DNA of 58,764 bases from an uncultured Gammaproteobacteria bacterium (GCA_964383765.1 CAYLHT010000006.1:1-58764), one strand, 5' to 3'. Positions 34,014-52,714 are shown, counted from the stretch's first letter. Program-made: numbers and translations. Notes: a model not told the origin generated them from the sequence alone.

Positions 34014-34865
34014 CTATAACGGGCTCTGGATACTTTTCAGTTTCGGGTTTGTCACCTGGGTGTACCGCTGGGTGGTCCGGATATTGTCATGTCCAAGCAA
34101 AACTTGCACATAGCGAATGTCCGTGCCGTTTTCGAGCAGGTGCGTAGCGAAACTGTGGCGCAAGCTATGGAATGTGGCGGGTTTGTTGATCCTGGCTTTG
34201 GCCAGCGCCTGTTCAAAAATCTTTTGGGCCGTTCGGGTCGTCAGCTTGCCGCCCCATTCGCTTGGAAAAACCAGGTCACGTCCTACCCTTCCAGAAATCA
34301 TGCTTTGTAAATCGCCAACTAATTTTTCAGGTAAAACGCTGATGCGATCTTTTCGGCCTTTGGCTTGCTTAATGTGAATCGTCTTTTCCGTGAAATCAAG
34401 GTCTTGAACTTTCAACACTACAACTTCACTAACCCGCAGCCCGGCGCCATAAGCCAGCCCCAGCATCAGCCGGTGTTTCGGATTCGTGGTGACGTCCAAC
34501 ATCCGGGCAATCTCTTCGCGTGACAAAACGATCGGTAAACTATGGCTTCGCTTGGCAGTCTGAATCACAATCGGCACACTTGTGCTTTCAATGTGCCGAT
34601 AGTAAAACTTCAAGGCGCTCAAACACAGGTTGCGAGTTTGTGGGGACGCCCCCCGGTTCTCAAGCGCCAACAAGAATTCCTTAATCCGCGCTTCGGGCAT
34701 ATTCACCGGCACGTCAAACTGAAACGCCAAAAAACCCTTCACAAAATACAGGTAGGTTTTGAGTGTTTTTGGGCTATAATTCCGTAGTCGCAATTCGGCT
34801 TCGGTTTTGTTGAGTTGTGAGTCAAAATTTTCCATAATAAATAAGTGGCTTTCTTGCCACCACAT
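34014..34865 (-). CDS. tyrosine recombinase, integron-integrase-like but short (Xer-length)
   Basis: Catalytic signature GAGLRVSE (R), KGRKDR (K), HSLRHSFATHLL (HxxR), LLGHDNIRTTQRYTQV (H..Y). The motifs are close to IntI1, from my recollection of its sequence (LDFDHGTIIVREGKGSKDR, ITKPATPHTLRHSFAT, LLGHSDVSTTMIYTHV, ...RSPL). Only about 58 aa separate KDR and HxxR. An alternative start is the ATG at 34835. Confidence 0.85.
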   Translation of the reverse strand: MWWQESHLFIMENFDSQLNKTEAELRLRNYSPKTLKTYLYFVKGFLAFQFDVPVNMPEARIKEFLLALENRGASPQTRNLCLSALKFYYRHIESTSVPIVIQTAKRSHSLPIVLSREEIARMLDVTTNPKHRLMLGLAYGAGLRVSEVVVLKVQDLDFTEKTIHIKQAKGRKDRISVLPEKLVGDLQSMISGRVGRDLVFPSEWGGKLTTRTAQKIFEQALAKARINKPATFHSLRHSFATHLLENGTDIRYVQVLLGHDNIRTTQRYTQVTNPKLKSIQSPL

Positions 34866-34913: not shown

Positions 34914-34954
34914 TATTATTATACGAACCAAGTTCGCATAATAACGAGATAGGC
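34914..34954 (+). other. attI-like site / first junction (G|ATAGGC at 34948/34949)
   Basis: GATAGGC (34948-34954) is the exact complement of GCCTATC, which opens attC-like site 1. It is preceded by the hairpin TATTATACGAAC-caa-GTTCGCATAATA (34917-34943). Confidence 0.6.
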
Positions 34955-35066
34955 GAAATAGTGCCCTTATTGACAGGAATTTAGTTTCTCGATAAGATTC
35001 TGTGTTCTTTCACAACAAATACTTTTAGGAAGCTTGCTCACGTCGCTTGGAAAGGAGGGTGCCACA

Positions 35067-35294
35067 GTGTTCACGACTCAAAGTACGCTTTCGGTGCTCA
35101 CTGGCTTCGGGTTCATCGCCGCCTGGATTTTTATCGGTTTCTTCGGCATTCACCTCTGGGCGGCCTGCTTTTCAGTGCCTCTTACCTACCGCTGGAAAAC
35201 GTGGCTTGCGATCGTTTTTGGACCCCTGACGTTTTGCCTCGTGGTCGTGTGGATCATCGCGGCTGCAGTGGACGATGTCGTCGAAGATCTGTGA
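35067..35294 (+). CDS. cassette 1: small two-TM membrane protein
   Basis: GTG start 7 nt after AAGGAGGG, in frame with ORF 35034..35294. TTGACA-17-TAAGAT promoter-like boxes at 34969-34997. Confidence 0.5.
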   Translation: MFTTQSTLSVLTGFGFIAAWIFIGFFGIHLWAACFSVPLTYRWKTWLAIVFGPLTFCLVVVWIIAAAVDDVVEDL

Positions 35295-35368
35295 ACGCTC
35301 CTTGTTTCCTTTGCGGGAAGGCCTCGCTTTCCCGCTTCCTAAAAGTATTTGTTGCCGCTAGCACAGTA

Positions 35369-35424
35369 TGCACTACCTCGCCTATCAGCGCGTATACGCC
35401 AAATAGGTTCGGCGTATGACGCGC
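35369..35424 (+). other. attC-like site 1 (short simple-hairpin class)
   Basis: GCCTATC-A-GCGCGTATACGCC-aaataggttc-GGCGTATGACGCGC-AAAC-GTTGTAT. One extrahelical G in the 3' arm. Confidence 0.8.
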
Positions 35425-35504
35425 AAACGTTGTATGCCATAGCGAACATGAAGAGATAAGTGCCTCGATCTCGGGGCGCGTGCCCCAAGTCCGAGGCACA
35501 CATG

Positions 35505-36088
35505 TTCGCCACCGCATACAACAGCGGATATGAGACGAAGGAAATCGGGTTTGGTTTTTAGTAAGTGAAAAAATAGCAGGCTTGGTAGCCTGTTATTTCG
35601 CTTCAGTGAAGATAGTTTTTCAGTCGTTAATCTTCTTCGGAATACACATCACTAATTTCTCGCCGAAGATTATCTAATTCATCATACTTTGCCTGTGATT
35701 CTACAGTAACAACGGGGGTGCTTGCGCCAGGCTTGGGCATGATCTTGCTCATTTCTTCATCGAGTTTTTCCACAATTTGTGGCATACGCATATTATCAGT
35801 AACTTCAATAAACTTTGCCGCACGGTCCCGAAAAGCTTTTTTTGATTCTTCCGTCATTGGTCCCCAAGTCCGACCCTCAAAATCTTCCGGCATATATAGT
35901 GACATTATTAGTTAATATATGGGAAAAATAACATGTGCCCACAAATAAAACAAGTGTTCATTGTAGCTTATTGACAATGTAGCAACCAAACCCGATTTCC
36001 TTCGTGCAAATTGCTACCTCGCTCCGGCGGTGGTAAAATTGTACCGCCGGATCGAAACAGCAACTTCTCATATCCGCAAACGTTAGGA
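35505..36088 (+). other. attC-like site 2 (branched class E, carries an ORF in helix-2 loop)
   Basis: ATACAAC-AGCGGATATGAGA...TCTCATATCCGC-AAAC-GTTAGGA. The inner helix CGAAGGAAATCGGGTTTGG / CCAAACCCGATTTCCTTCG encloses 35627..35905. A third hairpin lies around GGCGGTGGTAAAATTGTACCGCC. Confidence 0.7.
35627..35905 (-). CDS. hypothetical acidic protein (92 aa) located inside attC-like site 2
   Basis: AT-rich ORF. A minus-strand terminator hairpin (AATAACAGGC..GCCTGCTATTTTTT) lies at 35558-35587. Confidence 0.5.
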   Translation of the reverse strand: MSLYMPEDFEGRTWGPMTEESKKAFRDRAAKFIEVTDNMRMPQIVEKLDEEMSKIMPKPGASTPVVTVESQAKYDELDNLRREISDVYSEED

Positions 36089-36191
36089 GAAATAACGCCT
36101 CGCTTGTCTATTGACAGACAAGCACATATATGCCAGGGTTCCCTGGCTCATTAAGCTAACCAAAAAAGTGCACTCCTTCAGGAGGTGCGGC

Positions 36192-36584
36192 ATGACAGCG
36201 AAAGATCCGGAGAAAACTTGGGGGATCGCCCTAAGAGCCGCTAAGAACTATCTCGAGGGCGAGATCCAGAAGCATGAGTGTGGCGATCTTCTGGTAAAAC
36301 TGGAAGATCCCAAGGTTCGTCTCCTCGTGGGCCGCAACGTCAAGTTCCTGCGAACCGTGCAAGGTTTAACAGGATCAGAGCTTGAAGTGGTTGCGGGGTT
36401 GTCCAAGAACCTGGTCGGGAAATTCGAGTCAGGGGTCAAGGTCAACCCACGGTATGTGCTCATGATGGCAGCCACGTTCAAGGTTCTGCCGCACCTCCTG
36501 TTCCGGGAAGACCTGATTGAGCACCTGCGTGGCGTGGTCGCTCAAGAAATCAAAAGGTTCGGGGAGGAAAATCCTCGGTCATAG
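36192..36584 (+). CDS. cassette 3: XRE-family helix-turn-helix protein
   Basis: Trimmed to the ATG after AGGAGG. LRTVQGLTGSELEVVAGLSKNLVGKFESGVKVNPRYVLMMAATF is an HTH_XRE-like motif. Confidence 0.6.
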   Translation: MTAKDPEKTWGIALRAAKNYLEGEIQKHECGDLLVKLEDPKVRLLVGRNVKFLRTVQGLTGSELEVVAGLSKNLVGKFESGVKVNPRYVLMMAATFKVLPHLLFREDLIEHLRGVVAQEIKRFGEENPRS

Positions 36585-36655
36585 CACGTTGGAGGAAGGG
36601 GGCTCGCTCTCTTCCTCCACCCCTTTTTGTTATATTAGAAGCGAGGCGTTACATC

Positions 36656-36794
36656 TCCTAACAGCGCGTAACCGACGCGGTTTCTGGCGTCCGGCGAAGC
36701 CTGCCGCTTGCGAAACCGCTACATTTGCTGGTGTTTAGCCGCTCCGCGGCGTATGATAACACCAGCAAAAGTCGGTTACGCGCGGACGATAGCT
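36656..36794 (+). other. attC-like site 3 (139-bp three-helix class A)
   Basis: TCCTAAC-AGCGCGTAACCGAC...GTCGGTTACGCGC-GGAC-GATAGCT. Inner hairpins are GCGGTTTC..GAAACCGC and TGCTGGTGTT..AACACCAGCA. Confidence 0.85.
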
Positions 36795-37057
36795 GAAATT
36801 CCCTTTTTATTTTTCCGGTTTATCTACCGGAAATACAAAAAACTTTTTTAATTTCTTCTGTTATACTTTTTTTACTTTCCTGCCTGAATTAACATTATTG
36901 CTAGCTCAGGTAGGAGCACCAGCAAGATTCTGCTGATGCTTAAGGTGCTGTGGTCTCGCCCAAGGATTATGGTTTGCCTTGGATCCCCACTCTAGGGCAG
37001 GCGTCGCGGGCGCGACTTAAAGGCCTGACCTTTGGCTCGGTCCAGACTTGTCGCCGA

Positions 37058-37660
37058 TTATCCCTTGAGGAGATAATCGAGCATGAGATGCCAGGACTTC
37101 ACCCAGTCAAAATGTTCCTCACGGAACACTTCGGGATCGGGCTTGTCCTTGCAAATCTCGTACAAGTCGTTGTGACCGAATGGCTTGACCGGGTCACCGC
37201 CGCGCTCATAGGCATTGATCCAGCCCCTGTTGTTCGTCAGGAGCACCCGGCACTCGCCGACCATGAAAGGCGTCGGTTCAGCCTCACTCGCGTTGAAAGC
37301 GTCGAGGCAGGCAGAGGCGGGATGAGCGTGATGGTTCGAGTCGGTCAGCAGGCCTATGCACTTGGCGCCGTTTTTGATTGCGGCGTAAAGTACGAGGAAG
37401 ATGCCAACAGGCATCTCCTGGCCAGCATACGACATCCCCCGGTTGCCAAGGAGCGCAGCGCTGGCTGGCATGAGCAGATCACAGAGCACCACGTCGTACT
37501 GCTGACGGACGCTCTGGATGCTCTCCAGGTGCTCCCCGATCACGAACATGGCCTGCATCGCTTCGTCATACGACGAAACGGCGGTCACATCATGGTCGGC
37601 GAGCTGCGCTTTGGCAGCCCCCAAGTGTTTGGGATTGTCGTCGATCACGAGGATCTTCAT
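37058..37660 (-). CDS. cassette 4: CheY-like receiver-domain protein with unknown C-terminal extension
   Basis: MKILVIDDNPKHL...YDVVLCDLLMP has receiver-like acidic residues. GGGAGGTGA SD, TTGACA hexamer at 37744-37749 (minus), GC-rich. Confidence 0.55.
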   Translation of the reverse strand: MKILVIDDNPKHLGAAKAQLADHDVTAVSSYDEAMQAMFVIGEHLESIQSVRQQYDVVLCDLLMPASAALLGNRGMSYAGQEMPVGIFLVLYAAIKNGAKCIGLLTDSNHHAHPASACLDAFNASEAEPTPFMVGECRVLLTNNRGWINAYERGGDPVKPFGHNDLYEICKDKPDPEVFREEHFDWVKSWHLMLDYLLKG

Positions 37661-37829
37661 GCGGTCACCTCCCGATTGGAGTGGGTTTTGGTCAAAGGTC
37701 TAGCTAAAACGAGACCGGCCAGCATAGCATGGCCAATTCTTTTTGTCAATAGTTAGGCCAACTATAGAAATTAAAAAAGTTTTTTTGTATACGTTCCGTC
37801 AAAACGGAACAAAATAAAAAGGGAACATC

Positions 37830-37954
37830 AGCTATCAGCGCGTAAGCGGCTCCGGCTTACTCCGTTCCTCCGTAAGCCTGCGCCTAAGTTGCGCGAGTGT
37901 CGCCTTCGGCATATTATACACTCGCGCAACTTCGCTTACGCGCGGACGTTGTGC
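37830..37954 (+). other. attC-like site 4 (125-bp three-helix class B)
   Basis: AGCTATC-AGCGCGTAAGCG...CGCTTACGCGC-GGAC-GTTGTGC. Inner hairpins are GGCTTAC-tccgttcctcc-GTAAGCC and TTGCGCGAGTGT..ACACTCGCGCAA. Confidence 0.85.
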
Positions 37955-38045
37955 GCCATCGTGTTTTTTTGTAAAACAAATGAGACCCTTATTTATACTC
38001 CTTGGGTCTCAGTAGGAGTGTGGGCGCCTAGCCCTTCTATGAACC

Positions 38046-38393
38046 TTACGATTTCAGATATGCGGGCTTGTCCTCGACGAACAGTCGCCCCTTGCGCAGG
38101 TCCGTAGCGTAGACGCCCTCGACCATACGAAGGTGCGGCCACTTGCTGTCGGTGACATACGCGTTGAAGTGCCAGACATCAGCCGCACCGTGCAGAACGT
38201 CGTCGTTTTCTGCGCCAGCCGTGGTCGACCCTCGCGCCAGTTGATCGATGAACATGTGGATCGCGCCCAAGCCACCGAGATGCATGATGACTGGGAGGCG
38301 ATGGCCGTGCTGGTTGGTTTCTCCAGCACCCAACGAAGCGAGCAGATTATACTTGCTCGGTCCGTCGACGACGTTCAACGGTTGCTTTGACAT
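38046..38393 (-). CDS. cassette 5: hypothetical protein (115 aa), GC-rich
   Basis: Trimmed to MSKQPLNV..., preceded by GAAGGAGA. TTGACA hexamer at 38513-38518 (minus). Confidence 0.5.
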   Translation of the reverse strand: MSKQPLNVVDGPSKYNLLASLGAGETNQHGHRLPVIMHLGGLGAIHMFIDQLARGSTTAGAENDDVLHGAADVWHFNAYVTDSKWPHLRMVEGVYATDLRKGRLFVEDKPAYLKS

Positions 38394-38554
38394 AACGAAT
38401 CTCCTTCTGTAAGGAGCCTGGCGCACTTGTACGGCGGCGCCCACCCTTCTCCGTTTCCGGAGGGCTCGATCATCCGATCGAACAAAGTAGGTTAGCATGA
38501 AATGCTGCAATTTGTCAAGCCCGAATGTTTCTTAAAACGAAAAAACACGACAGC

Positions 38555-38693
38555 GCACAACAGCGCGTAACCGCCTCGGTTTCTGGCGTCCGGCATAGCC
38601 GTCCGCTTCCGAAACCGCTACATTTGCTGGTGTTTAGCCGCTCCGCGGCGTATGATAACACCAGCAACAGTCGGTTACGCGCAAACGTTGTCC
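38555..38693 (+). other. attC-like site 5 (class A)
   Basis: GCACAAC-AGCGCGTAACCG...CGGTTACGCGC-AAAC-GTTGTCC. Near-identical core to sites 3, 7 and 15. Confidence 0.85.
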
Positions 38694-38779
38694 GAAAATT
38701 TGCCTCCCTCGTTGTAAGATAAGCGCGGTTTCCATAAAATAAAGATGGTTGTTACTCTTCCTAAGGTATAGCAGACAAT

Positions 38780-39373
38780 ATGTCCCTATTTAACAAACGT
38801 TTAGATTCGTACGATAGTCAGGTACTCCAAACTCTTGAGAACCAAGTGAACGTATTATTCTCAGTACTTGGAGAATCGCCAAATGAGATGCATAAATTGG
38901 CCAAGAAGTTTCTTGATCAAAGTATTAGGTTATCAGAAAAGAATGGATATCGACATAAAACCAATCTTGGTGATGAAAGAATAAAGGATGTGACTTGGCT
39001 AAACAAACGAATAGCTGAAGGGTTGACCGCGGAAGACTGTAAAGATTTCTGGAATCGTGCACACGAAGTGATCTTGGGTGAATTTATCATTAATGATGTT
39101 TGGAGAAGGGGTCGAGCAAATGCATACAAGCTAACTGGGATGTCCTGGGAAGATGCTGTTAAAAGGGTTCAAAAAGATCACATCATTTATGGCGAACCAG
39201 ATCAAATTGAAGGAGGCTTCATTGGCGACAGTCGGTATATTTATCCTGAATTTGCGAAAAGATTTGAACACTGGAGAAGTACTGTCACCACCGAGCAAGA
39301 AGTAGAGCTATCTCAAAAGTATGAGACATATAATGCAATGGTTAGGGATCTGATCATTAAGAACAAAATCTGA
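38780..39373 (+). CDS. cassette 6, gene 1: hypothetical protein (197 aa), AT-rich
   Basis: Clean ORF with no recognisable motifs. Confidence 0.5.
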   Translation: MSLFNKRLDSYDSQVLQTLENQVNVLFSVLGESPNEMHKLAKKFLDQSIRLSEKNGYRHKTNLGDERIKDVTWLNKRIAEGLTAEDCKDFWNRAHEVILGEFIINDVWRRGRANAYKLTGMSWEDAVKRVQKDHIIYGEPDQIEGGFIGDSRYIYPEFAKRFEHWRSTVTTEQEVELSQKYETYNAMVRDLIIKNKI

Positions 39374-39381
39374 AGACGCAA

Positions 39382-39789
39382 ATGCCACAAACGAAATATG
39401 ATCAATCAATAATAAAAGAAGCGGTCCGCCACATTCAGAACGAATGGGATAATTTCAAGATATGTTATCAACAGTTGCACAGCCCAAACAATGCTATTTA
39501 CTTTGAATGTTTCTTATTGCACGCTCGGAATTTATATGATTTTTTCTTTACACCCAAGAAAATAAATGATGATGTTACTATAACCGACTTTGTTCCTTCT
39601 CCTTTAAAAGGTAATTCATACGTATTCCCAAAAGAGGCGATAAATAAACAGCTAAGCCATATCACATATTCAAGAGTTATTAATCCAATAAATTTATTCC
39701 CGGAACAGGATCAAATCTATTCCTACATCCACAACACACTTATCGATTACAATAATATTGCAGATGAGAGATACCGAATAACGGAATGA
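39382..39789 (+). CDS. cassette 6, gene 2: hypothetical protein (135 aa), AT-rich
   Basis: ORF 8 nt downstream of gene 1, probably co-transcribed. Confidence 0.5.
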   Translation: MPQTKYDQSIIKEAVRHIQNEWDNFKICYQQLHSPNNAIYFECFLLHARNLYDFFFTPKKINDDVTITDFVPSPLKGNSYVFPKEAINKQLSHITYSRVINPINLFPEQDQIYSYIHNTLIDYNNIADERYRITE

Positions 39790-39827
39790 AACCGCGCTTA
39801 TCTTTATGGGTCGGTCGGCAAATCTAC

Positions 39828-39885
39828 GGACAACAGCGAGTCATACGAAATAGCAAGTACTTCGTATGACTCGCAAACGTTGTAC
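39828..39885 (+). other. attC-like site 6 (short simple-hairpin class)
   Basis: GGACAAC-A-GCGAGTCATACGAA-atagcaagtac-TTCGTATGACTCGC-AAAC-GTTGTAC. Confidence 0.85.
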
Positions 39886-39959
39886 GAAATGGAGCGAGGT
39901 TTATGTAAATGAAGAGACCGCCCACAACGCGTTAGCGTGGGGCGGCCTTTGTCGCTGAT

Positions 39960-40262
39960 CTACAGCAACTTGAACGTACCTACAGGGCGATCGGCGTTTT
40001 CGTCCGTGGACTCGACGACCCATACGTTCGGTACCACACCCGGAACGTACTTGAGACGTCGGATCGTGACCCCTTGGAACCGGGGCGAAGACACATACAG
40101 CGCGATGCCTTCCTTGTCGCCGTACCCGATTGAAGTCACTGTTCCCGCGATCATGTGAGAGCTACCGAACAGGAACGGCCGCCCCACGATCTGCGTCGGA
40201 TTGTCGGGCAAACCACAGTCCGTAAGTGCTTGGCCGAACTGCGCTTCGTTCAACTGGAACAT
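39960..40262 (-). CDS. cassette 7: hypothetical protein (100 aa), GC-rich
   Basis: Trimmed to MFQLNEAQ..., preceded by AAGGAGGA. TTGACA-17-TTAAAT boxes at about 40332-40360 (minus). Confidence 0.5.
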   Translation of the reverse strand: MFQLNEAQFGQALTDCGLPDNPTQIVGRPFLFGSSHMIAGTVTSIGYGDKEGIALYVSSPRFQGVTIRRLKYVPGVVPNVWVVESTDENADRPVGTFKLL

Positions 40263-40380
40263 CGCAATCCTCCTTGTCGTTGCTACGTACACAGAGAGTG
40301 GCTGGCCAAACCTGGTGCGAACGAACTGGGCATTTAAGCACAGTTTCTCTGTACTGTCAAGGCCAACCTCGCTCCAAATC

Positions 40381-40519
40381 GTACAACAGCGCGTAACCGA
40401 CGCGGTTTCTGCCGCCCGGCGAAGCCGTTCGCATTCGAAACCGCTAAGTTTGCTGGCGTTAAGCCGCTCCGCGGCGTATGATAACACCAGCAAAAGTCGG
40501 TTACGCGCGGACGATAGTC
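40381..40519 (+). other. attC-like site 7 (class A)
   Basis: GTACAAC-AGCGCGTAACCGAC...GTCGGTTACGCGC-GGAC-GATAGTC. Confidence 0.85.
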
Positions 40520-40807
40520 GAAATATTTATTTTCTTTTTTCGGGCTAACGCCCGATTGTTTACAAAAATTTTCCAATTTCTTTTTCTCTTGAATAGAGGG
40601 GAAGTGGGTGTTTTCTCCGCTTCGCTGCGAAAACGCTTTGTTTTTGAGGGGAATCTAAAATAGCAAAACGAAACTGGGGAAAGCATGTTAATTCGCTGAA
40701 ATACGTCATTTCTCATGAAAATAAAGCTCTTCATCATATACCGGCTTGACAAGTAATATACATACGTTATACCCTTACTCAGGGTATATAATTATAAAAG
40801 GTGGTAT

Positions 40808-41029
40808 ATGGCAGCGGAATTAAGCAAACGCGACCGTTTCAAAAAACTGGCTGTTTATCGTACAAACGAAGTTTTGAAGCGACTCAAGGTCCTAGGAAAT
40901 TGTTCAAATAGAAGTGCGTACGAATACACTGAGGAAGAAGTAAATAAGATTTTTCAAGAAATTGACCGCCGGACTAAGGAAGTAAAGTCAAAGTTTTATT
41001 TTCCTAAAAATCGAAACTTTCAGCTGTAA
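40808..41029 (+). CDS. cassette 8, gene 1: small basic protein (73 aa)
   Basis: First ORF of a tightly coupled three-gene operon (TAATG overlap with the next gene). Promoter-like TTGACA-16-TATACC at 40746-40773. Confidence 0.5.
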   Translation: MAAELSKRDRFKKLAVYRTNEVLKRLKVLGNCSNRSAYEYTEEEVNKIFQEIDRRTKEVKSKFYFPKNRNFQL

Positions 41030-41925
41030 TGAAACATAACTTACCAAAACTTGCGTATAAAACTCCCTACGGCAAGATGTTCCAGGGCCTTGCTGAGCAG
41101 GTTCTTGATTCATCCAAGTTGAAACGGTATGAAGGCAAAGTTCAATTGATTTTCACTTCCCCGCCGTTTCCTCTAAACCGAAAGAAAAGGTACGGCAATA
41201 TTAAAGGTGATCCATACATTAGTTGGCTCACAAGCTTTGCGGAACTTTTTAAAAAATATTTAAAGAAAAGCGGTTCAATTGTAATTGAAATGGGAAATTC
41301 ATGGGAGCCGGGAGAGCCTATTATGTCCACCCTTGCTCTCCGTTCTTTGATCGCCTTTCACGACGTTGGAAACTATAATTTGTGCCAACAATTTGTCGTG
41401 TATAATCCGGCGCGTTTACCAAGTCCAGCGCAATGGGTCACCATTGAAAGAATTAGGGTAAAAGATGCATTTACCCACTTTTGGTGGATGTCGCCTTCTG
41501 TTAACCCAAAAGCAAGCAACAAACGAGTTTTGTCAGAATACAGTGCTTCTATGAAGCGTCTTTTGGCTAGTAAAAAATATAATGCCGGTAAAAGACCTTC
41601 GGAACATAACATTGGTGCAACGTCTTTCTTAAAAAACAACAAAGGCGCGATTAGTTCAAATGTCATTACGGCATCAAACACGAATTCCAGTGATAATTAC
41701 CAAAAGTATTGTCGAGAAAAGGGCATTGACCCTCACCCTGCAAGGATGCAAATGAAGGTCGCCGAATTTTTTATTAAGTTCCTCACTAATAAAAATGATT
41801 TAGTGCTTGATCCTTTTGCGGGGAGTAATACAACTGGAGCAGCGGCCGAGTATCTAAAACGCAAATGGATTTCTATTGAACCGTTGAAGTCGTATATTCA
41901 AGGTTCTAAAGGAAGATTCTTATGA
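41029..41925 (+). CDS. cassette 8, gene 2: DNA methyltransferase, beta-class (N4-cytosine or N6-adenine)
   Basis: Motif IV FTSPPFP comes near the N-terminus and motif I LDPFAGSNTTGAAA near the C-terminus (order IV then I). SPPF is typical of N4C/N6A enzymes. Confidence 0.75.
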   Translation: MKHNLPKLAYKTPYGKMFQGLAEQVLDSSKLKRYEGKVQLIFTSPPFPLNRKKRYGNIKGDPYISWLTSFAELFKKYLKKSGSIVIEMGNSWEPGEPIMSTLALRSLIAFHDVGNYNLCQQFVVYNPARLPSPAQWVTIERIRVKDAFTHFWWMSPSVNPKASNKRVLSEYSASMKRLLASKKYNAGKRPSEHNIGATSFLKNNKGAISSNVITASNTNSSDNYQKYCREKGIDPHPARMQMKVAEFFIKFLTNKNDLVLDPFAGSNTTGAAAEYLKRKWISIEPLKSYIQGSKGRFL

Positions 41926-44195
41926 AACTTGATGAGTTATTCAAACGATTTTCGATTGGAGAAGATATTGATGTTCTAAGTTCTGCCTTAGAAAAGTTTG
42001 TTTCAGAAAACAGAGACGCGGATTGGCATCCTATCGGGGATAAAATCAATAATAAAGGCCCGATTGAAGTCTCAGCTGACCCAGGGCGAGCATTAGTTGA
42101 AAGAGTTACTAATGCTGCTGACGCAGTTTTAGAGCTTGAGCATCATAAACATAACGGACAACCCGAGTGTCGAAGTCCACGTGAAGCGGCAACAGCTTGG
42201 CTGAATGTTCCCAATGAGGGCTTAAGTAAATTATCTACCGCCGAGCGTCGATCTTTGGCTCAAAAAGTTAAAGTAACTATCCAAAAGGGACGTACACGCC
42301 AAAACAGGATTTTTTCAGTGCGAGATTTAGGTCTCGGCATTCTTCCAGAGGACATGGGAAAGACAATCCTTTCACTTAATGAAAGCAATAAACTAGAAAA
42401 GCACTACCTGGCCGGTACTTACGGGCAAGGAGGTTCAGCAACTTTCAGTGTTAGCCAACTCTCATTTATTGCCAGTAGGAAGGCCGGTCAGAATAAAGTG
42501 GGATTCACAGTGGTGAAGTATCAAGAACTGGATCCTGAGCGGTACAAAACGGGTAATTATGTTTATCTAAGGATTAATGATCAAGTTCCTGTATTAGAAA
42601 CTAGTGATCAGGCCTTCCCTGCTGGAACACTAGTTAGGCATTTTGGTTATGACCTTAGTAAATATAACTCTTCGCTGGGCTCAGCAAGTGTATATGGCTT
42701 ATTAAATCAAGTTCTTTTTGACCCCGTGCTTCCAATTTGGCTCGACGATGACGTACAGGGATATCGAAGAACTATTAAAGGTTCCCGGAATGCGCTAAAT
42801 GGAGCTGTTGATGAAGAAGGCAAGGGCCCGTCACTTGTTCACAATATGCCTATGTTTTTTGTCGAACTGCCGGAGTATGGGCGCATAGGAATTGAGTATT
42901 GGGTTCTCGAAAGACCAACTAGTGCAGGAAAGAATCCTGCTGAAGCGTTTGTTAATTCGTCAAAACCCATTGTTCTTTCCTTAAACGGACAGAATCACGC
43001 TGAGTTGCCCAAGCTTCTCATTACCAAAGAGGCTGGAGTTCCGTACCTTGGTAACAGAGTTATTGTGCATATAGACTGCAACAGCTTGACTGGTTATGGC
43101 AAACGTAAACTTTTTTCCTCAAATCGTGAGGATGCTCGTCAGGGCCATGCACTTGAGTTAATCCGCAAAGAGGTTGTTAAAGCTCTCAATTCGGACGATG
43201 AGCTTATTAAGTTGAATAATGAAGCAAAACAATCGGTGGAAAGACAGCGAGACGAAAGCACCGTAAAGGAGATGAAAGCAGAAGTCGCTAGATTATTGAG
43301 GCTACAGGGACTCGAAATTGCAGAAGATGTTGGTTCTTCGGGGAAAAAAGGTAAAACTTCTGGAAAACGCCCTGTCCATCCAGGCCCTGGGCCATCAGTC
43401 CTTCCCCCTATAGAAATTCATGAACCACCAACTTATATTAATATTCTTTGGGATCCCGAAAAAACAATTTCATTCTATTCTGGTCAGCGACGTTATTTGC
43501 GGATTATTACTGACGCGAGCGAATCGTATCACAATGTCACAAACCCCAACCTATCGAAAGTAAATGTAATTATTTCTGGTGGAAATGATATACAGATGAA
43601 AGGAAGCACTCCTCTAAAAGGAGGAAGAATGCGTTTAATTCTCCAAGGTTCCTCTGATAAAGTTGGCACAAAACTAAAAATACGAGTCGAGCTTCAAAGA
43701 TCGGGCATGCCAGCATTATTTGATGAAAGAGAAATGGAGATGGTAAAAGAACCTGAGAAACCTAAATCTGAGTCCAGACCGACTTTGCCACCTTTTGAGG
43801 TCATTCCTGTTGGCCAAACTGACACAGACACGTGGTCAATGTTACAGTGGCCCGAAAACGTAGCCGGAGTTGCGTGTTCGGCTCTGGAAGATCAGGGCAC
43901 GCATACTGTTTATTACAATACTGATTTTCCTAAGTATGCTGAGCAGAAGGCGCAGCTTGAATCTAGAGATGTATCAATGTCTCAGTCTTTCACGAAGCGC
44001 TACGAGATTTGGCTTGCAGTCTATTCTTTATTGATGAAACAAGATGAAGAAAACGGCGTGAATAAAGACATAGAAATTGACCCAGACGTTTTGTCGAATA
44101 TTGAACGTCAAGAAAGAATTAGGACAGCAGTAATGTCAGTCATGTTCGCAAAGCGAGAGGTTCAATTTGAAACCAACACTGAAGCCGAAGAATAA
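41922..44195 (+). CDS. cassette 8, gene 3: large GHKL-type ATPase-like protein (757 aa)
   Basis: Bergerat-fold motifs ERVTNAADAV (N box), RDLGLGILPEDM (G1) and GTYGQGGSATF (G2). The long C-terminal region is uncharacterised. ATGA overlap with the methyltransferase gene. Confidence 0.55.
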   Translation: MKLDELFKRFSIGEDIDVLSSALEKFVSENRDADWHPIGDKINNKGPIEVSADPGRALVERVTNAADAVLELEHHKHNGQPECRSPREAATAWLNVPNEGLSKLSTAERRSLAQKVKVTIQKGRTRQNRIFSVRDLGLGILPEDMGKTILSLNESNKLEKHYLAGTYGQGGSATFSVSQLSFIASRKAGQNKVGFTVVKYQELDPERYKTGNYVYLRINDQVPVLETSDQAFPAGTLVRHFGYDLSKYNSSLGSASVYGLLNQVLFDPVLPIWLDDDVQGYRRTIKGSRNALNGAVDEEGKGPSLVHNMPMFFVELPEYGRIGIEYWVLERPTSAGKNPAEAFVNSSKPIVLSLNGQNHAELPKLLITKEAGVPYLGNRVIVHIDCNSLTGYGKRKLFSSNREDARQGHALELIRKEVVKALNSDDELIKLNNEAKQSVERQRDESTVKEMKAEVARLLRLQGLEIAEDVGSSGKKGKTSGKRPVHPGPGPSVLPPIEIHEPPTYINILWDPEKTISFYSGQRRYLRIITDASESYHNVTNPNLSKVNVIISGGNDIQMKGSTPLKGGRMRLILQGSSDKVGTKLKIRVELQRSGMPALFDEREMEMVKEPEKPKSESRPTLPPFEVIPVGQTDTDTWSMLQWPENVAGVACSALEDQGTHTVYYNTDFPKYAEQKAQLESRDVSMSQSFTKRYEIWLAVYSLLMKQDEENGVNKDIEIDPDVLSNIERQERIRTAVMSVMFAKREVQFETNTEAEE

Positions 44196-44327
44196 ATAGT
44201 TGTTTGCTAGTCGCCGGGCATTCACCCCTTTAATTCCCCTCTGCCCGGCGACCGATTGAGAAAAAGAAATTGGAAAACTTTTGTAAACAAGTCCCGCTGC
44301 CGCGGGACAAAATAATATAAATACATC

Positions 44328-44453
44328 GACTATCAGCGCGTTTGCGGCTACGGCTCGCTCCGTTCCTCCGCGAGCCTTCGCCTATATTGCGCGGGTGTCG
44401 CCTTCGGCATATGATACACCCGCGCAACAATCGCAAACGCGCGGACGTTAGGC
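44328..44453 (+). other. attC-like site 8 (class B)
   Basis: GACTATC-AGCGCGTTTGCG...CGCAAACGCGC-GGAC-GTTAGGC. Inner hairpins are GGCTCGC-tccgttcctcc-GCGAGCC and TTGCGCGGGTGT..ACACCCGCGCAA. Confidence 0.85.
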
Positions 44454-44503
44454 GACATTTTACTCAAAAATAATTATCTGTATATTGTGGGACGAAAAGT
44501 TTC

Positions 44504-44989
44504 ATGATCAAAGCATTTGTCAGCGACTTTTCCAGAGTCCTGTTATCACCGAAAGATGACAGCTACACCGAAGGACTAAATGCGCTGCATAAAAAACTGT
44601 CATCCGGTGGAGATTATGACTTTTGGTCATACTTTCGACTAAATCAAGATTTGCTTACTTTTTACAAAAAACTTAGCGCGGATATTCCTATTTATATGTT
44701 TACCACCGAGTATATTCAGGAACATCCAGCGCTTCAACCTGAACTAGCTGGAGTTTTCAAAAAAGTTTTTAGTGGGGCGGGTTTGCACTTGGAAAAAACT
44801 GATCCGCAATCATACTACTTCATCGCCAGAGAGCTTGGACTTAACACAAATGAAGTCTTGTACTTAGATGATAAACAAGCAAATCTTGATGCTGCTAAAA
44901 AAGCTGGTATGACTGTTATCGCTTATGAAGCAAACGAACAAGCACAACAGGATATCACTAAAACATTGAAAAACTTTTCGTCCCAATAA
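44504..44989 (+). CDS. cassette 9: HAD-superfamily hydrolase-like protein
   Basis: FVSDFSRVLL (motif I-like) and LYLDDKQANLDAAKKAGM (motif III/IV-like). Confidence 0.55.
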   Translation: MIKAFVSDFSRVLLSPKDDSYTEGLNALHKKLSSGGDYDFWSYFRLNQDLLTFYKKLSADIPIYMFTTEYIQEHPALQPELAGVFKKVFSGAGLHLEKTDPQSYYFIARELGLNTNEVLYLDDKQANLDAAKKAGMTVIAYEANEQAQQDITKTLKNFSSQ

Positions 44990-45014
44990 GTTAAATTATT
45001 TTTGAGAAAACGCC

Positions 45015-45646
45015 GCCTAACACGGGCTAGCCGGAGAGCGAACGAAATACTACTTTAATCTATGAGTTTCTACATTATTATTCGAGGTCCGCTCGGCTGC
45101 GGAAAATCTACGATTTCAGAAAAGCTATCTCAGCAATTCAATGCTGAACATATTGCAGTTGATCGCGTTCTTGACGAACACAATCTTACCGAAGACAAAG
45201 AGGACGGTTACATTTCACAAACAAGTTTCAAGCGAGTGAATGAATTAATCGCTCCGAAAGCACAATCATTATTAGAAAATGGAAAAACCGTTATCTTTGA
45301 CGGGAACTTTTACTGGAAATCACAGCTTGATGACTTAATTCAACGCCTGGATTTCCGCCATTACGTTTTCACACTGAAAGCACCACTTGAACTCTGCATC
45401 GAACGCGATCAAGCGCGAGACAAAACTCATGGGAAAGACGCAGCCGAGGCCGTATACAATAAATCAACTTCTTTTGAATATGGCACGTTGATTGATACAA
45501 CTGGAATTATTGACGAAACGGTACAGAAAATTCTTGAACATTTGCCAATAACAAAGTAGTATTTCGTTCGCTCTCCAAAATTGCGTAAGTGTACGCTTCG
45601 CGATAGTATACACCTACGCAACTTCGGCTAGCCCGAAACGTTGTGC
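45015..45646 (+). other. attC-like site 9 (class B-related, carries an ORF in helix-2 loop)
   Basis: GCCTAAC-ACGGGCTAGCCG...CGGCTAGCCCG-AAAC-GTTGTGC. The 20-bp helix GAGAGCGAACGAAATACTAC / GTAGTATTTCGTTCGCTCTC encloses 45062..45559. The third hairpin TTGCGTAAGTGTA..TACACCTACGCAA resembles class B. Confidence 0.7.
45062..45559 (+). CDS. P-loop kinase-like ATPase (AAA_33-like) located inside attC-like site 9
   Basis: Walker A IIIRGPLGCGKSTISEKL. Small nucleotide/metabolite kinase-like size (165 aa). Confidence 0.6.
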   Translation: MSFYIIIRGPLGCGKSTISEKLSQQFNAEHIAVDRVLDEHNLTEDKEDGYISQTSFKRVNELIAPKAQSLLENGKTVIFDGNFYWKSQLDDLIQRLDFRHYVFTLKAPLELCIERDQARDKTHGKDAAEAVYNKSTSFEYGTLIDTTGIIDETVQKILEHLPITK

Positions 45647-45762
45647 GCCATAAAATCTCGGCTTCGAATATTTAAAGAAGGTTTCCTGAATCAGATCATT
45701 ATGGTCACATCGAAAATCATGGCTTATACTTAGAACAGTCTTTTCAATAAACCTACAAATTT

Positions 45763-46392
45763 ATGCTCAAAAAAGCTTTCCTGCTTGCGGTAATAGCCTT
45801 CAGCATTGCCGTCACCGCTATTCCTGCTTCAGCCGCAACGAAAACAAAAATCTACACAAACCGGTCACTGGGATTTTCGTTGAAGTACAATGCGAAATTC
45901 CAATGGTCGACTGGTGGGTGCGACAATGCTCATAATAATATTTTTTTTCAACTCAATCCGTCCGATAAACTCAAATTGGAGAAAACTCAGCGTACCTATG
46001 ATATAGGTGTGCAATTATTGAATTTTAACGATGACGGGTGTTCTTTTGCTGTAACAATAGGACCGAAACTAAGAAAAACCTTACGGACAAGGGGTTGGGC
46101 TTCATTCATTTCTCAATATATAAAAGAAGTTGTCGACCCGAATCCATTCGAATCTGTTGCGGTTCAGGCGTACGGCTTAAATGGATATACCGCAACCATT
46201 ATTACAACCCATGAAAAGGGAGTTCAATATGTTGGTGGAACTGTCGAACACCATATTCTTGTCACTTCTGATAAAGTACATGTTTATGACATTAGCGATC
46301 AATTATATTCACCAAACTACAAAAAAATATTTTCCCCCAATCCCTACGCATACGACTTTCGTGCACTCGCACAAAGTTTCCGTATTCTCTAA
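45763..46392 (+). CDS. cassette 10: secreted hypothetical protein
   Basis: Signal peptide MLKKAFLLAVIAFSIAVTAIPASA. No recognisable domain. Confidence 0.5.
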   Translation: MLKKAFLLAVIAFSIAVTAIPASAATKTKIYTNRSLGFSLKYNAKFQWSTGGCDNAHNNIFFQLNPSDKLKLEKTQRTYDIGVQLLNFNDDGCSFAVTIGPKLRKTLRTRGWASFISQYIKEVVDPNPFESVAVQAYGLNGYTATIITTHEKGVQYVGGTVEHHILVTSDKVHVYDISDQLYSPNYKKIFSPNPYAYDFRALAQSFRIL

Positions 46393-46439
46393 GCTTTCTT
46401 GAAACAGTCACCTGAAGAACAACGCCGAGATTTTACGGC

Positions 46440-46551
46440 GCACAACACGGCGTATACGACATCCCTTCCTCTCTTCGGGGGTAACTCGCACAGCTCGATA
46501 TTCTACCCCCTGCGTTCAGTCGGGACGGTCGTATACGCCGAAACGTTGTAC
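46440..46551 (+). other. attC-like site 10 (112-bp class C)
   Basis: GCACAAC-ACGGCGTATACGAC...GTCGTATACGCCG-AAAC-GTTGTAC. Inner hairpin GGGGTAA..TACCCC. Homologous to site 13. Confidence 0.8.
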
Positions 46552-46631
46552 GCCATGGCGAACATGAAAGTATAAGTGCCTCGACCTCGGGGCGCGTGCC
46601 CCAAGTCCGAGGCACACATGTTCGCCACAGC

Positions 46632-47612
46632 ATACAACAGCGGATATGAGACGGAGGAAATCGGGTTTGGTTTTTTTATAGCAAGAAACCCCCGGAAGGC
46701 ACAGTTGTCCTTGCGGGGGCTGCGATCACGATGATCGCGAAGGTTCATTCAATGGGTAGAGAGTGTTCAGGCCAATGCGACTCGATGGGTCTCGCGGGAC
46801 AACCCATGCAGTCCGGCATACGTAGCCAGGATCTGGCTGGCTGTCATCACCTTACACGGATTCTCAGCATTCACGTCCATTTCGACGTCGTTGATCATGC
46901 CAGATTCGTAGATCCGCACATGAGGCTCGCCGATCTTGTCGTACGCACGGAAGACCGTGAACACCAGGTAATGCGGAAACCACATGGTGGCGCTTCCCTC
47001 GCCGCCGTACAGCCGGATGGTCGCGGTCACTCGCCGAAGCTCGTGCCGAACGTCCTGCGCTGGGGCATCGGGGAACGACCGCTCGAATGGGCCGATGAGA
47101 GCGTCGATCTCGACGATTCGGAACATGTCCGAATAGTACTTCAGCTCATTCTCGGCGCGGTCCTGACGCGAGCCGAAGCCTTTTCGGGACACCGGCGGGG
47201 CCGTTACGTTGGAGCGGTAGAGCTGGATTCCAGGACCGTACAGCTTGGCCAGCTCGGCTCGCAACAGCTCCTCTGCGAGTGACACTGAAAAGGGTCGGTC
47301 GGAACGATGCAGTTTCTTGAACATGGTATTCCTCCCATCACGGGAGCGTATAGGGATATTCCTACACGGCTACCATCTCGGCAGCGAACTAGCCAAGAGT
47401 ATTAACCTCTCTGCTAAATCGCTACCGAGGTACGGATGGAAGAGCTGAAATGAACAAACAGGTCACACTACACTATATACTGGCATTTGTCAATGCCAGA
47501 CACAAAAAACCAATTCCCATTTCCTCCGTCCAAATTGCTGCTTCGTTCCGGCGGTAGTATAATTGTACCGCCTCCACTTCGCAGCAACTTCTCATATCCG
47601 CGGACGTTGTAT
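46632..47612 (+). other. attC-like site 11 (class E, carries an ORF in helix-2 loop)
   Basis: ATACAAC-AGCGGATATGAGA...TCTCATATCCGC-GGAC-GTTGTAT. The inner helix CGGAGGAAATCGGGTTTGGTTTTTT / AAAAAACCAATTCCCATTTCCTCCG encloses 46767..47324. Homologous to site 2. Confidence 0.7.
46767..47324 (-). CDS. hypothetical protein (185 aa), GC-rich, located inside attC-like site 11
   Basis: GGGAGGAA SD 7 nt before the ATG. TTGACA hexamer at 47488-47493 (minus). Preferred over the antisense ORF 46731..47282. Confidence 0.5.
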   Translation of the reverse strand: MFKKLHRSDRPFSVSLAEELLRAELAKLYGPGIQLYRSNVTAPPVSRKGFGSRQDRAENELKYYSDMFRIVEIDALIGPFERSFPDAPAQDVRHELRRVTATIRLYGGEGSATMWFPHYLVFTVFRAYDKIGEPHVRIYESGMINDVEMDVNAENPCKVMTASQILATYAGLHGLSRETHRVALA

Positions 47613-47688
47613 GAAATATACTTTTCCTTTCCGCCTATCGGCTACTGCTTTTCTGAATGAGCAAATTTGATTAGTTACAAAAAGCAAC

Positions 47689-48873
47689 GTGCGAATTCTA
47701 ATTACAGCTGGAGGAACGATAGTAAAAATTGATGATGTTAGACACATCGGGAATTTTAGTACTGGTTCATTTCCAGCAAAAATCGCCGATGCTGCTTTAA
47801 TAAAAGGACATAGTGTTATTTACCTACATGCAAAAAATGCGAAGATTCCGGCTATAAAAAAGAAACTTAAGCTATTTGAGTACGAAACCTACGATGATTA
47901 CGCTCGCCAATTAAAAATCATTCTGAAAAAGAATGATATTGATGTCGCATTTTTAGCAGCTGCAGTATCTGATTATGGGGTCAAACAGTCTAAAGGAAAA
48001 ATCTCCTCATCAAAACCATCACTGGTAATCCGACTTTTTCGTCTGCCTAAGGTAATAAAAGGAGTTAAGAGGTGGTCAAGAAAACCGCTCTTTCAAGTAG
48101 GCTTTAAATTATTATCCGGTGTAAACCAAAAAGAGCTTTTTGAGGTAGCTTATAAATCCAGTTTAGAAAACCATTCGGATCTAACTATAGCTAACGATTT
48201 ATCAAACATACATAAAGGCAAGAGAGGGGTTATTTTAGTTACCCCAGAAAAAGGATTGATTAAACTGCAAGAACCAAAACTAGCCGAAAAAATTATTTCT
48301 TTCGTAGAAAAAAGATCACAAGTACAGCATTTTAGTACAGTTTTATCTCTAAAAAAGAATATCAATAAGAAATTTCGTCGAGAAATTATACTTTTTAAAA
48401 GGCTATGTCACCAGTTAAGTAAACAAGGACATATGCCTGATTTTTATCAGGGTGCCGAATCGGGACACGGTAGTTTGGCTCTAAGAACTAGCAAACATGG
48501 CTTCTTAATTACAGCGCGTGGTAGTAACAAAAAGAGCCTTCGTCCTCATGATGTTGTGTTCGTAAAAAAAGTAGATTGGAAGAAACGAGAAATTTTCGTT
48601 GAATCTGCTACAAATGAAAAGGCTTCTTTTAACGCAATTCTAGTAGCAAATATTTTCAAAAAACTTCCCTCGGTTAAAGCAGTGGTACACACACATAAAT
48701 TCTTTCGGGGTGTTCCGAGTACCGAATTCCCCTTTATGCCCGGCACTCTCCAGTATGCCGTAATACCCGCGCACCTATTTAGGGATAAAACCAGAGTTAT
48801 TAATCTCAAGAATCATGGCTTAATAGCTGTAGGAACTGATTTACAAGAAACTGTAAACCATGTACTACGGTAA
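47689..48873 (+). CDS. cassette 12, gene 1: fusion of CoaB-like (DFP/phosphopantothenate-cysteine ligase fold) and class II aldolase/adducin-like domains
   Basis: N-terminal ILITAGGTIVKIDDVRHIGNFSTGSF and AAAVSDYGV...GKISS are CoaB-like. C-terminal GFLITARGSNK, VVHTHKFF and LKNHGLIAVG are class II aldolase-like. GTG start. Confidence 0.6.
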   Translation: MRILITAGGTIVKIDDVRHIGNFSTGSFPAKIADAALIKGHSVIYLHAKNAKIPAIKKKLKLFEYETYDDYARQLKIILKKNDIDVAFLAAAVSDYGVKQSKGKISSSKPSLVIRLFRLPKVIKGVKRWSRKPLFQVGFKLLSGVNQKELFEVAYKSSLENHSDLTIANDLSNIHKGKRGVILVTPEKGLIKLQEPKLAEKIISFVEKRSQVQHFSTVLSLKKNINKKFRREIILFKRLCHQLSKQGHMPDFYQGAESGHGSLALRTSKHGFLITARGSNKKSLRPHDVVFVKKVDWKKREIFVESATNEKASFNAILVANIFKKLPSVKAVVHTHKFFRGVPSTEFPFMPGTLQYAVIPAHLFRDKTRVINLKNHGLIAVGTDLQETVNHVLR

Positions 48874-49576
48874 TTCGTACAAAAAGTTCCCAGGGCTTTA
48901 CGATTTGTTATATCAAAGGTTTCTAAAAACTGTTCCAGATTTTGTATCTCTGGTTAAGAAGAATACTCCAAAAAGAGGCCTCATTTTAGACTTAGCTGCT
49001 GGAACTGGCGAAGTGACAATCCCCTTGCTACGTCACGGATTTACCGTGGTGAGCCTAGACGCCAGCATAGGGATGCTCAAACAATTACAAAAAAAAGCAA
49101 AAATGGCTGGAATAAAGAAGTATCGCACGAAAGTGCTTGATATGAAAAAATTGAACTACCAGGGTAAATTTGATGTAGTCTGTATACGACAGGCAATCAA
49201 TTATTTTATGGGAACGCGGTCACTAACATCAGGGCTAAAGAGAATTAACGCATCGCTCAAGCGGGATGGTAAGTTTATTTTTAATGCTCCAAATTATCAA
49301 GGTCAGAAAAACTACAAGACCACCTATCATTATTACAATAAAGCATCACAAAGCGCTGTCGTTGTTGAAACAAACACTATCGAAAGAAAAACTTTAAGGC
49401 ATACCCAGTATTCTATAGTTTGGCGGAATAACAATATGCCAACTTTCGTAAACGACGAAAATTCTTTTTATATATTTACAAAAAAGGAATTTGAGAGTTC
49501 TTTAAAAAAGAGTGGTTTTTCAAAGATTCGATTTAGTGGATCCGCTAAAACACTATATGGTGTAGCAACAAAATGA
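48860..49576 (+). CDS. cassette 12, gene 2: class I SAM-dependent methyltransferase
   Basis: LILDLAAGTGEVTIPL is motif I. Overlaps both neighbours. Confidence 0.7.
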   Translation: MYYGNSYKKFPGLYDLLYQRFLKTVPDFVSLVKKNTPKRGLILDLAAGTGEVTIPLLRHGFTVVSLDASIGMLKQLQKKAKMAGIKKYRTKVLDMKKLNYQGKFDVVCIRQAINYFMGTRSLTSGLKRINASLKRDGKFIFNAPNYQGQKNYKTTYHYYNKASQSAVVVETNTIERKTLRHTQYSIVWRNNNMPTFVNDENSFYIFTKKEFESSLKKSGFSKIRFSGSAKTLYGVATK

Positions 49577-50472: not shown

Positions 50473-50559
50473 TAATGACGTGGCCCTGCTGTCACGGTTA
50501 ATCAAATTTGCTCATTCAGAAAAGCGCCTGATACAATCAGGAAAGGAAAAGTATAAATC

Positions 50560-50616
50560 ATACAACAGCGCGTATACGATATACTACGTACAATCGTATA
50601 CGCGCGGACGTTAGCT
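50560..50616 (+). other. attC-like site 12 (short simple-hairpin class)
   Basis: ATACAAC-A-GCGCGTATACGAT-atactacgtaca-ATCGTATACGCGC-GGAC-GTTAGCT. Confidence 0.85.
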
Positions 50617-50719
50617 GAAATGTTGCTCTTGACATGAGGACGCTATCGGTCCAAAATCGGTTATTCGAACTTTCACAATAAAAATATTCTTAGGGGGCGC
50701 CCATGAAAGGAGGAAGTGG

Positions 50720-50941: not shown

Positions 50942-51026
50942 ATCGCCCTTTCTAGAGGAGATGGAACGCCCCCATCTTCTCGCCCCCTAAGAATATTTTC
51001 TCTTTCACATAGCTACGCAACACATC

Positions 51027-51138: not shown

Positions 51139-51172
51139 GAAACTTTCGTCTCATTTTCCTCAAGATTGAAAC

Positions 51173-51742: not shown

Positions 51743-51743
51743 A

Positions 51744-52669: not shown

Positions 52670-52714
52670 AAATCGGGCTTCGCTTCTGCAAATACGATTA
52701 AGTTAATAAATTTT

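Follow-up and report, generated by a model that had tools for sequence, protein, structure and literature searches.

Integron integrases carry an additional domain, I2, that is held to enable them to recombine folded attC DNA (PMC7790495). Because deletion of I2 kills IntI1, the causal role of the domain has never been directly tested, and in the scenario of Escudero et al. (2020) a Xer-like ancestor gained it on exposure to single-stranded integrative mobile elements exploiting Xer (IMEXs) (PMC7790495). For both integron attC x attI and CTXphi x dif1 recombination, the accepted scheme is one strand exchange that is followed by replication (PMC3442271; PMC7790495). The locus described here lies in a 58,764-nt stretch of DNA (hereafter the window) that is titled as an uncultured Gammaproteobacteria bacterium (GCA_964383765.1 CAYLHT010000006.1:1-58764). 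It consists of a tyrosine recombinase gene (34014-34865, minus strand; 283 amino acids (aa)), whose product is of Xer length and closest to IntI but lacks the IntI-specific I2 domain, a dif-like core site upstream of the gene, and 16 cassettes in one orientation (34949-54407) next to it. With a probability of roughly 0.7, it represents an integron-like cassette platform driven by an I2-less, Xer-type recombinase that uses folded mimics of its own core site. No earlier description of such an arrangement was found in the open-access literature.

The locus resembles integrons in that the recombinase gene diverges from an array whose cassettes all run in one direction, mostly with a single open reading frame (ORF) of unknown function, a fixed site lies beside this gene, the cassettes end in imperfect palindromes of 50-150 nt with YYYAAC...GTTRRR boxes and a G|TT crossover (AA|C on the other strand), the start of a cassette is complementary to its own site, and the recombinase is nearest to IntI by sequence, hidden Markov model (HMM) score and fold. 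It differs from them in several respects: (i) the recombinase has no I2 and scores under the IntI HMM cut-offs; (ii) the complementary arms are at least 11 nt long, versus 7 in integrons; (iii) there are no conserved extrahelical bases, and a 4x1 internal loop takes the place of the 5x5 spacer; (iv) the hairpin stem and the fixed site are copies, related in sequence, of one dif-like core; (v) multi-gene cassettes of 3-4 kb occur, and the hosts belong to the Candidate Phyla Radiation (CPR).

With the CTXphi IMEX at dif, which is served by XerC/XerD, the locus has in common a Xer-type enzyme without I2, a folded and (here putatively) single strand that mimics a double-stranded dif-like target and leaves the centre unpaired, tandem build-up at the site, and the expectation of one strand exchange followed by replication (PMC3442271; PMC7790495). 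Unlike that element, however, its cassettes are small, carry no phage or replication genes and stand up to 16 in a row with one hairpin design, while the recombinase is apparently single and no GC-skew switch marks the site. The XerS/difSL, XerH/difH and archaeal XerA/dif systems likewise have one Xer-length recombinase beside a core site with inverted 11-nt arms, yet the present recombinase falls in a separate clade, one arm of its site appears to be continually replaced by cassette DNA, and its cassettes are bounded by hairpins. The pdif modules of Acinetobacter are also genes bounded by Xer sites and thought to be moved by Xer recombination (PMC7399989, PMC11705084); pdif are, however, plain 28-bp double-stranded sites of alternating orientation on plasmids, in contrast to the directly oriented hairpins beside a recombinase gene found here.

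The recombinase and its family

The recombinase was aligned with IntI1 (the reference sequence used being 100% identical to annotated intI1 genes), with XerC and XerD of Escherichia coli (loci L088 and L090) and with its homologues. The comparison with IntI1, XerC and XerD shows R144, K169, H233, R236, H259 and Y268 to be invariant, and all residues of the catalytic R..K..HxxR..H..Y set that a preliminary description of this DNA had named were thereby found. The IntI-like motifs claimed in that description were also recovered: LDFTEKTIHIKQAKGRKDR and INKPATFHSLRHSFATHLL of the recombinase correspond to LDFDHGTIIVREGKGSKDR and ITKPATPHTLRHSFATALL of IntI1, respectively, and both DIRYVQVLLGHDNIRTTQRYTQV and the C-terminal ...SPL are present. 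Furthermore, the spacing given there between the KDR (172-174) and HSLRH (233-237) motifs, with 58 residues between them, was exact.

In this interval IntI1 has 42 aa more, distributed over three blocks (12+19+11), which are missing alike from the recombinase, its homologues, XerC and XerD. The best PDB sequence match (phmmer) was VchIntIA (2a3v), in two pieces: 20 aa of the query (192-211) replace 63 aa of VchIntIA (183-245), of which 43 aa are without counterpart. In an AlphaFold model built on a 62-sequence alignment (predicted local distance difference test, pLDDT, 86.4), a helix, short strands and a helix connect the beta-hairpin (162-177) with the HxxR helix (233-245); these are ordinary Xer elements only, and no extra helix stands between the two. 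The alignment, the PDB match and the predicted structure, in which the extra IntI helix is missing from the beta-hairpin/HxxR-helix region, are thus all without the insertion, as the preliminary description had held. Among the homologue matches listed, 120 of 120 are 224-318 aa long. The true start of the recombinase may be M11 (position 34835), as most homologues begin there. A PDB chain titled 'Ribosome-associated translation inhibitor RaiA' (9i5v_14) was found to match residues 37-278 of the recombinase (E 1.3e-18); the molecule name of this chain looks wrong.

Pfam matches of the recombinase comprise Phage_integrase (3.7e-43) and the SAM_4 N-terminal domain. The top NCBIfam model was that of the integron integrase, TIGR02249 (218.9 bits in two stretches; cut-off 265), and PRK15417 gave 152.9 bits, below its cut-off of 435; being without I2 and scoring under the family cut-offs, the enzyme is therefore not an IntI by definition. 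Curated Xer families were likewise not matched above cut-off (XerA, 210.2 of 220 bits; XerC, 170.8 of 335; XerD, 166.2 of 329.6). Sequence identity is 38-39% to IntI1, 37% to VchIntIA, 32-35% to XerA and 29-31% to XerC/D, and the best fold matches of the AlphaFold model are VchIntIA, then archaeal XerA. A small neighbour-joining tree separates the CPR group, the IntI group and the XerA+XerC/D group from one another, each with 98-100% bootstrap. By these sequence comparisons, the family forms a clade of its own, apart from IntI and XerA/C/D, and is assigned to the CPR 'Cand' lineage, closest to IntI.

The 'Cand' subgroup of Smyshlyaev et al. (2021) consists of Xer-related recombinases of candidate phyla, and the family found here is very large, 55-76% conserved over many CPR classes. 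Both points suit a housekeeping Xer/dif explanation, by which the enzyme would be the sole dimer resolvase of these CPR cells, working beside its dif, and the cassettes would be non-autonomous elements of IMEX type that hijack it and leave the array as a by-product. We regard this explanation as rather unlikely; the protein stands outside the XerA/C/D clade and under every Xer HMM cut-off.

The core site and its folded copies

The core site emerged from a comparison of the sequences upstream of homologues with 70-74% identity that lie on other contigs. A conserved stretch, YYYAAC followed by TCGTTATTATGCGAAC, is located 70-135 nt before the start codon (L001-L007), and left of it the sequences of the homologues diverge and resemble cassette arms. 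In the window, this attI-like or dif-like site occupies 34931-34959 on the minus strand (ATTTCGCCTAT - CTCGTTA - TTATGCGAACT, 11-7-11), that is, ~66-96 nt from the start of the recombinase gene; the array abuts it, and the crossover would fall between 34948 and 34949. Based on 136 distinct sites, the consensus is ATTTCRnATAA|CTCGTTT|TTATnCGAAnT, which features inverted 11-nt arms around a 7-nt centre over 29 bp, and this 11-7-11 layout is, from the sequence, that of a tyrosine-recombinase core site. The gene-proximal arm and the centre are constant across loci, and the distal arm comes from the cassette that happens to stand first; in the window, it is formed by the opening 11 nt of cassette 1. 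For metagenome loci with >200 nt upstream, a core site was present within 260 nt upstream in 61 of 64. An inverted copy of the constant arm (34916-34930; TTATTATACGAAC), found in only some of the homologue loci, may serve as an accessory binding site.

The consensus is close to E. coli dif (GGTGCGCATAA-TGTATA-TTATGTTAAAT; the dif sequence was confirmed in MG1655), and the close resemblance of an 11-7-11 core site to dif again favours the housekeeping explanation. So does the vicinity of gene and site: single-recombinase Xer systems (xerS/difSL, xerH/difH) keep the two together. In addition, one locus (L027) lies at ~53% of a 998-kb contig. On the other side, a +/- GC-skew switch, which is expected at the terminus, was absent from each of the 20 loci that extend ~10 kb to either side (7-9 kb per side used), and in 17 of the 20 the sign was the same on both sides; in the window itself, GC skew is too weak to place the terminus. 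Since this GC-skew test is local and not decisive, the housekeeping explanation is kept as the main rival. The preliminary description had set against its own proposal a firm clustering with dimer-resolving Xer proteins next to a dif-like site; a dif-like site does adjoin the gene, but the clustering with XerA/C/D was not found. With the gene beside a dif-like site, yet outside XerA/C/D and with no GC-skew switch, the Xer-like and integron-like readings merge, and the difference between the housekeeping and the preferred reading is mostly which role is primary.

Many contigs end 30-300 nt upstream of the recombinase (L005, L006, L009-L011, L015, L016, L018, L037, L038, L051, L058, L065, L070, L079 and others), and in six the core site is at the contig edge itself (L009, L011, L015, L016, L018 and L079). 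This suggests population variation at the junction or repeat-induced assembly breaks.

Right of the recombinase gene, G+C drops from ~0.54 to 0.37-0.48 up to ~54.4 kb and repeats pile up. The repeats are halves of imperfect palindromes, and the cassettes end in a hairpin of 50-150 nt. On the plus strand, the two halves read YYYAAC-A-GCGCGTA... and ...TACGCGC-(GG/AA)AC-GTTRRR, and in the folded form an outer arm is followed by a 1x4-nt internal loop and then by a long, unbroken stem, capped by a variable top that is often three-way or branched. Over many loci, the consensus is ATTTCgnaTAAC-GTTT-cnGnaTATncGAaG for the 5′ half and CCgnATAtnCgg-T-GTTAtncGAtgt for the 3′ half. The elements of the 5′ half are colinear with those of the core site (variable arm, centre and TAT.CGA arm motif), and the 3′ half pairs with them except at the centre, where 4 nt face 1 nt. 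In the folded hairpin, the outer 11 bp copy the variable arm of the core site and the invariant 4x1 loop sits where the centre would be.

The stems were found to vary in a manner consistent with pairing. Among 84 sites there are 57 distinct stem 10-mers, with several pair types at 6 of the 10 positions while the TAT and G-C positions are fixed; these compensatory pair changes indicate that the structure is conserved, and part of the sequence too. When candidates were chosen by the arm motif alone, an in-register partner (≥9/10) was present in 37% of them, versus 1% for shuffled stems and 1% for the opposite strand. Conserved extrahelical bases were not found in the hairpin stems, whose asymmetry is the 4x1 internal loop. 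The 'different mode of site recognition' anticipated in the preliminary description is therefore upheld, in the form of a 4x1 loop and a stem that copies both core arms in place of conserved bulged bases.

The hairpins might alternatively be terminators, repetitive extragenic palindromic (REP)-like repeats or structured RNAs among ordinary genes, that is, not recombination sites at all, as they are strong stem-loops with conserved three-way tops located at the 3′ ends of ORFs. This explanation is very improbable. Rfam, searched with the array at E≤1, returned nothing; all 17 junctions, namely the 16 hairpin sites and the gene-adjacent one, read ...ACG|WTRRnnGAAAT; the hairpins are largely restricted to sequence upstream of the gene; and G+C falls across the array. 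Moreover, 12-13 of the 16 units begin, past the junction, with 11-27 nt that are reverse-complementary to the sequence just preceding the unit's own site. Three units have ATC/GAT in place of AAC/GTT, and this variant changes in concert at the start of the cassette and at its site, which places the crossover immediately after G. Judged from the sequence, the complementarity between start and own site is the mark of units that go through a circular stage, like integron cassettes.

Another explanation is that the recombinase is a coincidental neighbour, the array being a canonical integron whose I2-bearing IntI is outside the window or has been lost. Arrays without an integrase (clusters of attC sites lacking integrases, CALINs) are common in bacteria (PMC9024848), and the hairpin ends (YYYAAC...ACG|TTRRR) are attC-like boxes with a G|TT crossover, as this explanation would have it. 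Nevertheless, it is most unlikely: the core site has its arm, crossover point and TAT.CGA motif in common with the hairpins, no second tyrosine recombinase was found by tblastn in the 58.8-kb window, and the order and orientation of gene, site and hairpin recur in the 167 loci of two collections. The same comparative evidence, that is, the missing further recombinase, the shared junction sequence and a layout that recurs in two independent sets of loci, supports the earlier claim of a Xer-length enzyme servicing attC-like hairpins.

Recurrence and a possible mechanism

The 167 loci comprise a genome set (80 loci of species-representative genomes and another 7 found by exact look-up) and an independent metagenome set (80 loci). 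A permissive scan for hairpins, in which any spacer and loops to 1.3 kb were allowed, gave mostly noise; the stricter scan yielded long-loop matches at levels equal to those of shuffled and reverse-strand sequence, and hence only sites of ≤260 nt were counted. In the genome set, 381 kb of sequence upstream of the recombinase gene contain 62 co-oriented hairpins and 597 kb of downstream sequence contain 6, versus 5 and 7 in reversed orientation; in the metagenome set, the numbers are 54 (168 kb) and 7 (317 kb), versus 4 and 4. Pooled, 116 co-oriented hairpins are upstream and 13 downstream, with 9 and 11, respectively, in the opposite orientation. Where ≥1.5 kb of upstream sequence was available, 57 of 87 loci have at least one hairpin and 24 have at least two, with a maximum of seven within 10 kb. 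The host groups include Kerfeld-, Roizman-, Dojka-, Shapiro-, Peregrini-, Nomura-, Kaiser-, Uhr- and Amesbacteria, Saccharibacteria and WWE3. Twelve contigs on which a CPR-type recombinase and its core site occur bear the title 'uncultured Gammaproteobacteria' or 'Pseudomonadales' (L009, L011, L024, L028, L030, L043, L050, L058, L062, L071, L080 and L086; binchicken co-assembly bins), which probably reflects taxonomic mislabelling or an artefact of binning.

The unit adjacent to the core site is 274-3,761 nt long across loci and encodes unrelated proteins, its longest ORF pointing away from the recombinase in 52 of 57; by these sizes and unrelated proteins, a conserved accessory gene at this position was rejected. 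Shufflon-like inversion switches were also rejected, as the sites are in direct orientation. With its closest long relative (L091), the window shares hairpin types but not cargo. A tblastn search of cassette proteins against the fetched loci found only distant homologues and no identical cassette elsewhere that would demonstrate mobility, and an exact search of metagenome contigs for the 29-nt conserved attC core gave no match. The presence of a co-oriented hairpin in about two thirds of loci, the integron-like orientation of the ORFs, and cassettes without replication or phage genes (no such Pfam domains were found in the cassette ORFs) weigh against the housekeeping explanation, even though that explanation could draw on the hairpin as a dif mimic in the manner of CTXphi (PMC3442271).

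For the preferred reading, in which the recombinase captures cassettes through folded copies of its core site, the following course may be envisaged. A circular cassette, or the array, would expose the strand 5'-arm-AA|C-GTYY-stem (minus strand of the window) as a hairpin, which a recombinase dimer would bind as it binds the double-stranded core site. Cleavage would take place at AA|C, the boundary of arm and centre, and one strand would be exchanged with the core site. Because the centres differ (CTCGTTT in the core site, CGTTYnn in the hairpin) and that of the hairpin is unpaired, the second exchange would be blocked, and replication would then resolve the junction intermediate. The choice of strand and the orientation of the cassette would be dictated by the 4x1 asymmetry instead of by bulged bases that an I2 helix reads.

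Several points weigh against this reading. Strand exchange, a single-stranded substrate and the choice of strand are all inferred, and neither an excised circle nor an empty site was observed. The likeness to dif is so strong that the enzyme may primarily be the dimer resolvase of the cell. In 3-4 of the 16 cassettes the pairing of start and end is not clean, and two hairpin sites contain large unexplained inserts. Furthermore, most other loci have 1-5 hairpins per 10 kb, so that large arrays are so far unsupported as a common state, and the hairpin scan is home-made as well as strict (it recovers 10 of the 16 window sites).

The CPR arrangement looks like the pre-I2 stage of Escudero et al., or like a parallel solution. 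We would give about even odds to a wider proposition, namely that it stands for an undescribed, lineage-wide, integron-like class in CPR, with I2-less, Xer-type capture via folded mimics and hence hairpin recombination without I2, either as an extant pre-I2 stage or as an independent reinvention. A natural I2-less enzyme that is nearest to IntI among its relatives and is tied to attC-like hairpin cassettes would allow a direct test of hairpin recombination and strand choice without I2, as well as a test of the origin of integrons from Xer/dif. Standard integron detection would miss the whole class of arrays, as it needs an I2-bearing IntI and the canonical attC model. In a 2026 permafrost survey, 97% of contigs with 'integron-type' recombinases were without recognisable attC, for which 'novel attC sites' were one explanation (PMC13323075). 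If the reading holds, the system would also be a route of gene gain in tiny CPR genomes, here including a DNA methylase unit.

Cassettes of the window

All 16 cassettes are on the plus strand; most of their ORFs are directed away from the recombinase gene, and most are without Pfam match. Cassette 1 (34949-35429) carries an 86-aa ORF (35034-35294) and a hairpin site (35376-35429) with one bulged G. A strong sigma-70-like promoter match (TTGACA-17-TAAGAT, 10/12) at 34970-34998 in this cassette is directed into the array; if genuine, it would mean that the promoter comes with the first cassette and not from the platform. Cassette 3 (36083-36788; site 36652-36788) encodes 157 aa and cassette 4 (36789-37948; site 37826-37948) has the ATC/GAT box variant; they are followed by cassette 5 (37949-38687; site 38551-38687), cassette 6 (38688-39879; ORFs of 197 and 135 aa; site 39824-39879) and cassette 7 (39880-40513; site 40377-40513).

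Cassette 8 (40514-44447; site 44324-44447), at 3.9 kb, encodes an N6/N4 DNA methylase (41029-41925), followed by a 757-aa ORF without Pfam match; its genes (41029-44195) are possibly a restriction-modification unit carried as a cassette. Cassette 9 (44448-45640) encodes a HAD hydrolase and an AAA_33 kinase, and in its site (~45544-45640) the 3′ half is normal, but the 5′ half and arm are atypical. The start of this cassette (TTAGGCGA...) pairs best with the arm of site 15 (53580-53590), not with its own, which may be the trace of a past rearrangement between sites. Cassette 10 (45641-46545; site 46436-46545) harbours a 209-aa ORF. Cassette 12 (47607-50610; site 50556-50610) encodes a DFP/aldolase, an S-adenosylmethionine (SAM) methyltransferase and a class IV aminotransferase. 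Homologues of the methyltransferase (25-29% identity) are located in L022 (303-953), L084 (8561-9211) and L133 (849-1433), in each case in the core-adjacent cassette, making it a recurrent type of cargo.

Towards the distal end, cassette 13 (50611-51132; site 51023-51132) has a 73-aa ORF, cassette 14 (51133-52663; site 52612-52663) ORFs of 189 and 295 aa, and cassette 15 (52664-53712; site 53580-53712) one of 294 aa, and cassette 16 (53713-54407; site 54310-54407) is the last. Beyond it, G+C rises to 0.56, and the flank (TTAGACCAACT) resembles an ancestral distal arm.

Cassettes 2 (35430-36082) and 11 (46546-47606) are of the same type, with an insert in the loop of the hairpin site: in the former (site 35512-36082), 0.43 kb between 22-nt inverted repeats, with a 92-aa ORF on the minus strand of the insert, and in the latter (site 46628-47606), 0.83 kb. 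The two inserts have ends that are 21-27-nt inverted repeats (ACGAAGGAAATCGGGTTTGGTT and its complement) and differ in content, and the same ends recur in L091 (4455-5142). Such loop inserts could be a second kind of small mobile unit, one that targets the loop of the hairpin.

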